This document shows positions 1,787-4,596 of a DNA stretch of 64,000 bases, one piece after another. Numbering within the stretch: position 1 is the first letter of the stretch; each line of letters starts with the position of its first letter. This DNA is from a virus: UHGV virus genome UHGV-0242533; one strand, given 5' to 3'. A program made the position numbers and the translations under genes. Under the pieces are notes generated by a model that was given only the letters and a program-made list of their open reading frames with translations, was not told the DNA's origin and did not search any database.

Positions 1787-1819
1787 AGGTTGTCCTCCTT
1801 GTTATATGTAGACAAAGAA

Positions 1820-1828
1820 TATACATTA
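1820..1828 (-). promoter_or_regulatory. TAATGTATA promoter-like element (minus strand), about 35 nt upstream of the 1786 start
   Basis: Exact 9-mer on minus strand; the same 9-mer recurs upstream of other genes (see findings). Confidence 0.4.
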
Positions 1829-1850
1829 CACACTGGCTTGTATAGGTCTT

Positions 1851-1880
1851 AAAACGAAAAAACCCCGCCCGAAGGCAGGG
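1851..1880 (-). terminator. Intrinsic terminator after capsid genes (minus strand)
   Basis: Minus-strand RNA hairpin CCCUGCC-UUC-GGGCGGGG followed by a U-run; pairing is good only on the minus strand (U-G wobble). Confidence 0.6.
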
Positions 1881-1887
1881 TCTAATT

Positions 1888-2430
1888 TTAAGCAGGTGTT
1901 ACACCAGTAAAAGTGCATGTTGCATTGATGGACGGGTCAGCTGTCAAACTAGCTTGAACAGTAACTTCGCCACTTGCAGCAGCATCTAATTTTAACGAAT
2001 TATTAGCGCTTATTGTACCAGCTTCTACGGGAGTTACAACAAGTGTGTAATCATCAGCAACAGAATTGGTTACAGTAAACATGGTGTTGAAGTTAGTGGT
2101 AGTACCACCTACTTTACCTGTAATTGGCCCACGACTCACAATAGTAGGAGCAGGAGCAACAATTTCAGAAATGGTTGCTGTACCAGAAACACCTTCTAAA
2201 GTTGCAGTAATGGATACATCAGTGGATTGAGACGCACTCGGAGCAGTATACAAACCAGACTGAGTGATAGAACCACCTCCTGTCACTGACCAAGTAAAGC
2301 CAGTTGTTTCGGTAGAACCATCACTTTTCTCCGCGCTTGCAGTGAACTGCCGAGTAGCCCCTGTCTCTAGACTTGCTAAAGACGCAGGGCTAACAGTCAC
2401 ACTGTCTACTGTTACGCCGCCACCTTTCCC
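1888..2430 (-). CDS. Capsid C-terminal extension with Ig-like domains, predicted to be expressed by -1 frameshift from the major capsid gene
   Basis: The ORF-track start at 2400 is GTG without SD; the frame stays open upstream into the capsid gene in the -1 frame. Product is Thr/Ser/Gly-rich with beta-sandwich-like repeats. Confidence 0.55.
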   Translation of the reverse strand, partial: GKGGGVTVDSVTVSPASLASLETGATRQFTASAEKSDGSTETTGFTWSVTGGGSITQSGLYTAPSASQSTDVSITATLEGVSGTATISEIVAPAPTIVSRGPITGKVGGTTTNFNTMFTVTNSVADDYTLVVTPVEAGTISANNSLKLDAAASGEVTVQASLTADPSINATCTFTGVTPA

Positions 2431-3470
2431 GCAGCAGTGAACAGAACGCCGGAAGCATACGGGTTGCGGTGACGCAGACCAACTTCCATTTCAATCATCC
2501 ACTTCTCGTAAGAACCGTCTTTAGCCAGTTCAGTACGTTTCGGAGCACGCAGAACCATCTGAGTCCAGTCAGCGCTACGGAAGAAGTAAACTGCATCGGT
2601 AGGCATCCAACGGTTAACGATGATTTTGTAGCTCTGGCCCAGCGGGTCAGTGATGCTGTTAACTTCGTAGATGAACTGCTTGGTGTTCTCAAAGATACGC
2701 TTACGTGAACCCTGAGTATTTTCTTGCAGGCCAGCGAAGATCTTAGCATGAGCCGGGTTAATCATGATGATATCAGCTTCAGAACCAGCGGTATACAGTT
2801 GCAGAGTCATATCAAAGATATCAGCTTCGTCGAAACCAATGTTAGTGGTCGGGTTAGAAGCATTCTGTGCAACTTTAACAGTTACTGCACCAGTATCCGG
2901 GTCAGCAGGACCATTCTTAGTCTTGTCAACAACGCCACCAGCCAGACCACCGTGAGCACACAGGAACTGGAATGCACCAGTCTTACGAGCTGCATGGGTG
3001 TCGTTCAGACCAACAACAGTAGGATCAGTTGCAGAGTTAGTCAGGTACTGGTCAGCCAGAACGTCGGTACGAGCCTGACCGGACAGAAGGATTTTCTCGA
3101 GGTCACGCTTGATCTCTTTACCTTTCTTCTCCAGCTGATACATCAGTTCACGACCACGACCGTAGTTAGCGGTGGTGTTAGCAGTATCAGAAACACGAAC
3201 AACCTTACGCAGAATCTGAGTAACGTTAGATTTGATAACAGTCGGTTTCATTTCGCCGTCTTCAGCACGAGAGCCTTCGACGTGTGCGTTATTAGCGTCA
3301 ACGCTTGCCAATGCATCGGTCTGCCAGCTAAAGATAGTCTGGTTGATAGACTCTTTGCCGGTCATGGATACGAACGGGGTATCCTGAGGGGACAGAACAG
3401 AAATCCAGTTAGCAAAAGAAAGTTTTTTACCATTCTGGTCATACGATACAAATAAAGTTGGATTAGCCAT
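2412..3470 (-). CDS. Major capsid protein (352 aa)
   Basis: Position after scaffold and portal, size, and downstream frameshift extension, as in T7 gene 10A/10B. Confidence 0.75.
   Translation of the reverse strand: MANPTLFVSYDQNGKKLSFANWISVLSPQDTPFVSMTGKESINQTIFSWQTDALASVDANNAHVEGSRAEDGEMKPTVIKSNVTQILRKVVRVSDTANTTANYGRGRELMYQLEKKGKEIKRDLEKILLSGQARTDVLADQYLTNSATDPTVVGLNDTHAARKTGAFQFLCAHGGLAGGVVDKTKNGPADPDTGAVTVKVAQNASNPTTNIGFDEADIFDMTLQLYTAGSEADIIMINPAHAKIFAGLQENTQGSRKRIFENTKQFIYEVNSITDPLGQSYKIIVNRWMPTDAVYFFRSADWTQMVLRAPKRTELAKDGSYEKWMIEMEVGLRHRNPYASGVLFTAAGKVAA
2424..2430 (-). other. Candidate -1 ribosomal frameshift heptamer G GGA AAG
   Basis: Plus-strand ctttccc, i.e. GGGAAAG on the coding strand, 4 codons before the capsid stop codon; canonical X XXY YYZ slippery site. 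Confidence 0.55.
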
Positions 3471-3510
3471 GTTATGTTAGCTCCTATACTATTAATAATT
3501 AATTTGTCGA

Positions 3511-4596
3511 TTAATCTACGAGGAATTTGAATGCGTCTTCGTGACTAACGCGACCCTCTGCGAATGCCTTGGCAACCTTAGCGTTGTCGGGCTTATTGGA
3601 AGTACGAGACTTTGCAGCATCAGACTTCACAACCTTGCGTGGAGCACCGGGACGTTTAATCTTAGCCATCACCTGTTGTTTACCTTTATCAAATTGGTAT
3701 GCTTTATGGAGAGCTAGGAAAATAGACGGACGGTTTTCCTTCAATACTTCTTCTTCAGTAGCACCTAAGTCAATTGCGTATTGCATTAAGTTTTGATATA
3801 AGTTTTCATCCCAATTTGGAATCTCACGTTTCAGAATATTAACACATTCAATGCTCTTGGCTTGGAAAGCTTCCTGCTCTTTAGCTGCTGCTTCCTGCTT
3901 AATACGGATTTGAGCCTGTTCAAGCTGTTGACGGCGAGCTGTGTACTTCTCTAGGAAACGTTTGTTTTCAACATACGCTTGAGGATCTTCTACTGCAAGC
4001 TTGTCCCAATCAAAACCGTTGTAATCTTCAATTACTCGATCTGCTTCTAAAGACGCTAATTCTAATACATCCTTCAAACCTACTACACGTTCCTCAAATG
4101 CTTCCATATGACGCTGAAGAGTTGATTCTCGTTCTGTCATATCAGCACCAGTAAGATAGCCATTAGAAAGTTCTTCAATAGTCATCTCACGTCCATCAGG
4201 AAGGGTGATAACGGTTTCGTAGTCTACATCAAAGACTTCACCTTCACCGTCAGCAGAATCATCTTCATATCCTGCATCGCTTGAGTCTTCCTCATCTGCT
4301 TCAGAGCTTTCGTCTGATTCATCAAATTCTTCCTCATCTTGTTCGACTTCGCCTTCCTCAGTATGATCTTCCCAACCATCTTCATCTTCGAACTTAAGCT
4401 CATTGCTTTCACCGAGAAGGTCGGTATCAAAGTCGAAATCGTCACCGTCTTTTTCCGGGAACTCATCGTCAATGTCCACTTCTGGTTCTTGTTCAGATTC
4501 TAATCGACCGAGTTCTTCTTTGAAAGAACCTTTCAGGTCATCTAGTTGGAGGAAAGATTTAAAATCGTTCGGGTCAATATAATTATCTTGTGGCAT
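3511..4596 (-). CDS. Scaffolding protein (361 aa)
   Basis: Highly acidic central region (D/E runs) with coiled-coil-like C-terminal half; located between portal and capsid genes. Confidence 0.6.
   Translation of the reverse strand: MPQDNYIDPNDFKSFLQLDDLKGSFKEELGRLESEQEPEVDIDDEFPEKDGDDFDFDTDLLGESNELKFEDEDGWEDHTEEGEVEQDEEEFDESDESSEADEEDSSDAGYEDDSADGEGEVFDVDYETVITLPDGREMTIEELSNGYLTGADMTERESTLQRHMEAFEERVVGLKDVLELASLEADRVIEDYNGFDWDKLAVEDPQAYVENKRFLEKYTARRQQLEQAQIRIKQEAAAKEQEAFQAKSIECVNILKREIPNWDENLYQNLMQYAIDLGATEEEVLKENRPSIFLALHKAYQFDKGKQQVMAKIKRPGAPRKVVKSDAAKSRTSNKPDNAKVAKAFAEGRVSHEDAFKFLVD

Follow-up and report, generated by a model that had tools for sequence, protein, structure and literature searches.

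We find that the 3' end of the major capsid protein gene in UHGV virus genome UHGV-0242533, analysed as a 64,000-nt stretch of DNA (hereafter the window), very probably directs a programmed -1 ribosomal frameshift, predicted to yield a minor, extended capsid protein with Ig-like domains. A stimulatory RNA structure aside, the sequence bears out what is expected of a programmed -1 frameshift that would append Ig-like domains to the capsid protein, and we establish here the slip site and its register, the open -1 frame, conservation across relatives, coding selection, how the extension is predicted to fold and that it has no start of its own. A preliminary description of this DNA framed the fusion as a new prediction, which it is not, as a GGGAAAG capsid frameshift is already known from publications on phiEco32, SU10, YF01 and Privateer. 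Mirzaei et al. 2014 (PMC4281155) reported that GGGAAAG in SU10 joins the Ig-like CDS10 to the head protein "as in phage phiEco32", Corban and colleagues (PMC7881722) annotated and discussed the Privateer frameshift, with two gel bands and MS, and the YF01 paper (PMC9965538) describes a Kuravirus-like capsid protein in two forms through GGGAAAG. Literature searches on Kuravirus slippage and on WFI101126 proteomics found nothing further.

Megablast of positions 1800..3600 (minus strand) matched 126 phage records, the top match being Escherichia phage FS2B (98.9%), with phiEco32 at 96.9% nucleotide identity across 1.8 kb and SU10 at 96.2%. Thus, the window belongs to a phiEco32-like Kuravirus, an E. 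coli phage with a prolate C3-type podophage head. Genes on the minus strand are ordered large terminase, portal, small ORF, scaffold, major capsid protein, Ig ORF, terminator and adaptor. The capsid gene (2412..3470, minus strand) is preceded by the Shine-Dalgarno (SD) sequence AGGAG (3481..3485, minus strand; anti-SD duplex energy -6.5 kcal/mol), and its zero frame encodes 352 aa up to the stop TAA at 2414..2412. The product, labelled major head protein by PHROG, is 99% identical to phiEco32-like capsid proteins and falls in the SU10-type HK97-fold major capsid protein family by its HMM match to Pfam PF17236 SU10_MCP (E 4.1e-77, 260 bits against a cutoff of 24.1). With an orthologous capsid gene and an identical junction, the window is a member of the Kuravirus/phiEco32 capsid-Ig frameshift group. 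A strong intrinsic terminator (1850..1883, minus strand; 10-bp stem, 6 GC pairs, T-rich tail) directly adjoins the extension stop, and the capsid gene and extension therefore close a transcription unit. T7 also has a terminator after its capsid gene, with gene 10 and T-phi likewise ending a transcription unit. The SU10 GenBank record also annotates a terminator at the position equivalent to 1850..1883.

The slippery heptamer G GGA AAG lies at 2424..2430 (minus strand) in X XXY YYZ register, the zero frame reading GCG GGA AAG (2430..2424). As the capsid gene ends ...TTC ACT GCT GCG GGA AAG GTG GCG GCG TAA, the AAG of the heptamer is the fourth codon ahead of the stop, just as the preliminary description had placed it. 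Restarted at G2424, the -1 frame reads GGGVTVDSVTVSPAS... / GGGVTVDSVTVSPASLASLETGATR..., overlaps the slip site, passes the zero-frame stop and continues for 178 codons to a TAA at 1890..1888 (extension 1888..2424, minus strand); about 175 codons had been proposed, so that the open continuation holds and the exact length is slightly greater. Its codons GGT GGC GGC (2416..2424, minus strand), read solely in the -1 frame, encode a Gly-Gly-Gly linker. Together, 3470..2424 and 1888..2424 encode a predicted fusion of 527 aa and 55.9 kDa, compared with 38.7 kDa for the plain capsid protein. This gain of 17.2 kDa is close to the 18 kDa or so anticipated earlier, and the anticipated junction ...AAGK-GGGVTVD... 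is exact in the translated sequence. Thr, Ser and Gly make up 43% of the extension, in agreement with its earlier characterization as rich in these residues.

GGGAAAG is not enriched in the window, with 10 copies against 7.5 +/- 2.8 expected by chance, and we rejected heptamer frequency alone as evidence because this count is not above chance. The non-random aspect of the motif is its context, not its count: only the copy at 2424..2430, one of the ten, sits in register within a long ORF and has a long open -1 frame behind it, and 349 zero-frame codons lie upstream of the slip site. The same protein product could also arise from a frame change at the RNA level, through transcriptional slippage by RNA polymerase. 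Transcriptional slippage requires long homopolymeric A or T runs, however, and the longest run at the site is three bases, while the motif matches, in proper register, the textbook heptamer for tandem slippage. With no homopolymer run at the site, we rejected transcriptional slippage, which we regard as extremely improbable.

We compared capsid loci from GenBank phages and from IMG/VR, where a scan gave 12 loci. The sequence CTGTTCACYGCTGC-GGGAAAG-G is invariant in 14 of 14 distinct Kuravirus-like junctions, which include phiEco32, ShigP1, SU10, YF01, KBNP1711, Bas92/93, EP335, SR02, Bas86, E20-1 and PE006, and the window junction is identical to that of phiEco32 from -40 to +147. The heptamer and its 5' flank are fixed, whereas the bases just 3' differ by 3-nt, in-frame indels; the linker in the -1 frame is GSGG, GGS, VGSA or GGSG in relatives and GGG in the window. 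Among Kuravirus-like phages, SU10 excepted, the open -1 frame runs for 172 to 543 codons. Conservation of the slip site reaches divergent homologues: in Proteus phage Privateer, at 57% capsid identity, the last sense codons form this heptamer and a -1 ORF of 169 codons follows, and in more distant lineages the equivalent position carries related ..A AAG sites. Extension length varies at the YF01 locus (L009, 3547-5175) and at loci L027, L028, L029 and L030 (from 2097).

Codon substitution patterns indicate that the -1 frame is under purifying, protein-level selection from the heptamer onward, ahead of any start codon. Across the 100 nt following the linker in 12 Kuravirus-like sequences, 15 of 26 variable codon columns were purely synonymous in the -1 frame, compared with 1 of 26 and 0 of 24 in the other frames. 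No stops occur in the -1 frame of these 12 sequences, compared with 7-8 columns with stops in the other two frames. A conserved peptide, TVD[ST][VI]TVSP, starts before the GTG that opens the ORF in the window, and codon changes there are synonymous.

That GTG (2398..2400, minus strand), chosen by ORF callers as the start of an 'Ig domain protein', is probably an internal Val codon. The preliminary description noted that it lacks an SD, and its anti-SD duplex energy of -1.7 kcal/mol is indeed at background level (mean -2.1), whereas the genuine starts of six neighbouring genes reach -6.1 to -11.4. Initiation at GTG 2400, either de novo or by termination-reinitiation, would make the Ig ORF a separate gene and its product a free, 170-aa Ig-like decoration protein attached non-covalently to the capsid. 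Most GenBank records annotate the locus in this way, the SU10 cryo-EM authors regarded gp10 as a possible minor capsid protein, and the GTG lies only 11 nt beyond the capsid stop. We nevertheless consider a separate gene very improbable, given that the codon, besides its background SD complementarity, is GTA or ATA in nine relatives (YF01, KBNP1711, L014, L015, PE006, EP335, SR02, Bas86 and E20-1), and that the codons from the heptamer to the GTG change synonymously and preserve the peptide TVD[ST][VI]. Additionally, a beta-strand predicted by AlphaFold2 (AF2) at extension residues 6-12 spans the GTG (residue 9), so that a start there would truncate the strand. The first candidate start in relatives lies 9 to 61 codons past the slip site (61 in Privateer, 47 in KBNP1711), almost none with SD complementarity, and independent initiation would therefore cut into Ig domain 1. 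The -1 frame thus lacks initiation signals of its own, as expected of an extension reached by frameshifting. The GenBank records of this locus are inconsistent, mostly giving a separate 'Ig domain containing protein' or 'hypothetical protein' with differing, non-homologous starts; among the records fetched, a joined, frameshifted CDS is annotated only in YF01 and Privateer.

Pfam returned no meaningful match for the window extension even at E up to 10, and hence no gathering-score HMM match to Big_2 (PF02368); the Ig assignment is therefore drawn from AF2, Foldseek and homologues. With a 24-sequence alignment, AF2 predicted two all-beta domains in the extension (pLDDT 96.6). The first Foldseek match against the PDB was to the tandem Big_2 domains of Leptospira LigA (E 8e-11), and lower matches included the phi29 prohead chain 8f2n_E, the SU10 nozzle protein through its Ig-like domains, and further proteins with tandem Ig domains. 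Compared with the extension of YF01, that of the window shows 61% identity over the first 175 YF01 residues, and the YF01 segment aligned at this identity matches Pfam Big_2 (E 3.6e-9) in its first domain; the PHROGs label for the extension is Ig domain-containing protein. Thus, by its predicted Ig-like beta-sandwich fold and by homology to Big_2-positive relatives, the extension groups with Big_2, and we confidently predict that it forms two tandem Ig-like domains, in keeping with the beta-sandwich-like domains that the preliminary description had suspected in the -1 frame. Domain 1 (Big_2-type; extension residues about 5-88; 2161..2412, minus strand) is assigned from AF2, Foldseek and YF01 homology, and domain 2 (an Ig-like beta-sandwich; residues about 92-178; 1891..2151, minus strand) from AF2 and Foldseek. 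In YF01, domain 2 is tandemly repeated several times, which accounts for the longer isoforms of that phage.

SU10 is the exception within the group. At about 2700-2712 of its locus (L007), a 1-nt insertion (GACACTGTCTACTG compared with GACAGTGT-GACTG) closes the -1 frame after 11 codons and shifts the Ig ORF to the capsid zero frame, behind a TAA and a TAG. SU10 cryo-EM showed neither extra capsid density nor an extra band, because this SU10-specific insertion closes the frame; the YF01 paper (PMC9965538), which likewise records the insertion, explains the lack of a long form in SU10. In the SU10 MS data the fusion entry had 50.3% coverage with 22 peptides, against 78.1% and 23 peptides for the plain capsid protein (PMC4281155), and therefore needs no extension peptides. 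We infer that plain-capsid peptides alone could explain the fusion entry, which makes it weak evidence, and this fits both the closed -1 frame and the cryo-EM result.

The SU10 case raises the question of whether the heptamer and downstream ORF are an inactive remnant in the window as well, giving no meaningful extended capsid protein, as apparently in SU10. The absence of the extended form from SU10 virions and of a canonical stimulator among the structures found at the window site would agree with this. However, the window -1 frame is intact over 178 codons and its junction is identical to that of phiEco32, purifying selection on the -1 frame extends across the group, the disrupting insertion is carried only by SU10, and the identical heptamer of lambda shifts about 4% of the time. 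On this evidence a remnant is very improbable, and we favour a functional frameshift.

A search for stimulatory RNA structure downstream of the heptamer, as the preliminary description had proposed, gave candidate hairpins at +1/+9 and +23 nt with z about -1, and neither folding nor covariation established a canonical stimulatory structure 5-9 nt downstream. Folding energy z-scores around and after the site were -0.6 to -1.2 in Kuravirus-like sequences. An invariant hairpin (2409..2444, minus strand), predicted by folding and with all columns invariant, places the heptamer in its apical loop, and Mirzaei et al. (PMC4281155) noted a hairpin around the SU10 heptamer. A conserved downstream hairpin 23 nt past the heptamer (2342..2400, minus strand) is a candidate element, with helix pairing of 94-99% in 13 sequences, z -1.0 and two covarying pairs (UA/GC/AU, GC/UG), these pairs coming from closely related sequences from which the structure itself was derived. 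RNA folded from +1 forms an irregular hairpin around UAACAGU/ACUGUUA. In the window (2390-2444), UAACAGU, which holds the capsid stop, is complementary both to an upstream CUGUU and to the downstream ACUGUUA. These pairings are mutually exclusive hairpins between which a translating ribosome would switch, and all columns involved are invariant.

Under the frameshift mechanism, most ribosomes would read GGA AAG GTG GCG GCG TAA and release the 352-aa capsid protein, and a minority would slip back one base on G GGA AAG by tandem -1 slippage. In these ribosomes tRNA-Gly would leave GGA and re-pair with GGG, and the only tRNA-Lys of E. coli would move likewise from AAG to AAA. Such ribosomes would then read the Gly-Gly-Gly linker and the two tandem Ig-like domains, giving the 527-aa, 55.9-kDa capsid-Ig fusion. 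G_GGA_AAG has been reviewed as highly shift-prone in E. coli, and by analogy with lambda G/GT, which has the same heptamer, slip efficiency would be a few percent. We infer that the fusion is incorporated into virions with an adhesive role: it would join the prolate head as a minority subunit and present its Ig-like domains on the surface, where they would probably provide weak adhesion to carbohydrates or surfaces. Weak adherence to carbohydrates or mucus has been ascribed to Ig-like domains displayed on phage capsids, and it may bear on how these phages behave in the gut. We did not accept the mucin and heparan binding of ES17 as functional evidence for the extension, as its authors credit the tail fibre and not capsid Ig domains.

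Compared with known systems, the window does not differ in substance from the phiEco32-type phages: phiEco32 gp11/gp12 and the Kuravirus-like isoforms (SU10 CDS9+10, YF01 gp8) share the gene, the GGGAAAG, its position and the type of extension. At 366-543 codons, the extensions of YF01 and its relatives are longer, owing to domain 2 repeats that were compared in YF01 only, and SU10 differs in having lost the open -1 frame. Privateer is alike in carrying GGGAAAG at the 3' end of its capsid gene and in the I-set and Big_2 domains of its -1 extension (169 codons), but differs in that the heptamer abuts the stop codon, capsid identity is 57% and Pfam recognises the domains of its extension and not those of the window. 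The preliminary description likened the system to T7 10A/10B, and the parallel stands for mechanism and position: the capsid gene 10A/10B of the podophages T7 and T3 likewise has a -1 frameshift close to its end, giving a minority of longer subunits. It fails for content, the extension being Ig-like in T3 but short and not Ig-like in T7 10B; the slippery sequence also differs from that of T7 and T3, and the capsid families are unrelated at sequence level. Atkins et al. review how frameshifting can append Ig-like domains, T3 gene 10 being one example.

Other systems share part of this arrangement. Lambda G/GT has the identical GGGAAAG and a zero-frame stop just downstream, with the zero frame kept about 96% of the time, but it encodes a tail assembly chaperone and not a capsid protein, and its product is not a virion component. 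In Listeria phages A118, A500 and PSA and Lactobacillus phage A2 (Fraser et al. 2006), recoding adds C-terminal Ig-like domains to a fraction of the structural proteins, although the phages and slip sites are different and the direction in PSA is +1. Phi29 gp8 and the second capsid paralogs of Salmonella 7-11-type phages are likewise capsid proteins with a C-terminal Big_2 domain, but these are in-frame fusions for which recoding is unneeded, and the ratio of plain to extended capsid protein in 7-11-like phages would depend on two separate genes.

Related phages reach a similar capsid protein by another route. No slip site was found in the capsid gene of SeKF_80, BUCT695, GAP52, ECO319P1 or Vp_R1, and the first three of these phages each have a further capsid paralog in which SU10_MCP and Big_2 are fused in frame. 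The -1 extensions of relatives carry Pfam Big_2 or I-set domains. Thus, capsid proteins that end in an Ig-like domain are a real architecture of the family, obtained by recoding here and by gene duplication there, and the gene-duplication route leads to the same two-isoform outcome. Two-paralog loci are found in BUCT695 (L002, 3549-4781), SeKF_80 (L003, 1484-2422 and 2501-4270) and GAP52 (L005, 3529-4629), and further ones at L031 (2181-3266) and L023 (2501-3817), the longer paralog of L023 giving no Ig match. In the Grimontviridae-type relatives without a slip site, which have two capsid paralogs, the homologous Lys codon is AAA, not AAG.

Beyond the published frameshift, we offer two tentative and rather doubtful wider readings, one in which this capsid family uses interchangeable routes to an Ig-bearing minority subunit and one of a ribosome-driven hairpin switch in Kuravirus. 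The routes may comprise G_GGA_AAG, single-tRNA A_AAG sites (G_GUA_AAG, A_GUA_AAG), the dnaX-type A_AAA_AAG and a duplicated capsid gene fused in frame. The single-tRNA A_AAG route may operate in KSP100 and in Lahexavirus-like phages, where the sites carry no annotation and some are followed at 6 nt by a GC-rich hairpin. In Kuravirus, the 3' arm UAACAGU could re-pair with the downstream ACUGUUA after the ribosome unwinds the 5' arm, and such a switch, if real, would tune the ratio of the two capsid forms. Alternation of frameshifting with gene duplication in one capsid family shows how phages set the stoichiometry of capsid decoration. There are also consequences for annotation, since most GenBank records, including those of therapy candidates such as ES17, give a separate Ig protein with arbitrary starts.

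Distant capsid relatives (53-66% identity) without GGGAAAG carry G GTA AAG, A GTA AAG or A AAA AAG, which fall at a homologous Val-Lys, 1-2 codons ahead of the stop. These sites lie at about 3412-3440 in loci L018, L019 and L020, about 3412-3425 in L004 and L021, about 3286-3298 in L006 and at 3421-3427 in L024. Behind most of them the -1 frame stays open for 88-169 codons and encodes Big_2 or I-set domains; that of L024 is only about 40 codons long, with no Pfam match. Known single-tRNA A_AAG sites, for example G_CGA_AAG of IS1222, resemble those of the distant relatives. None of these sites is annotated as a frameshift, and the downstream ORF is recorded as a 'tail protein' (LAh_9) or a 'major tail subunit' (KSP100). 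In loci L018-L020, a GC-rich, 6-bp tetraloop hairpin lies 6 nt past the site.
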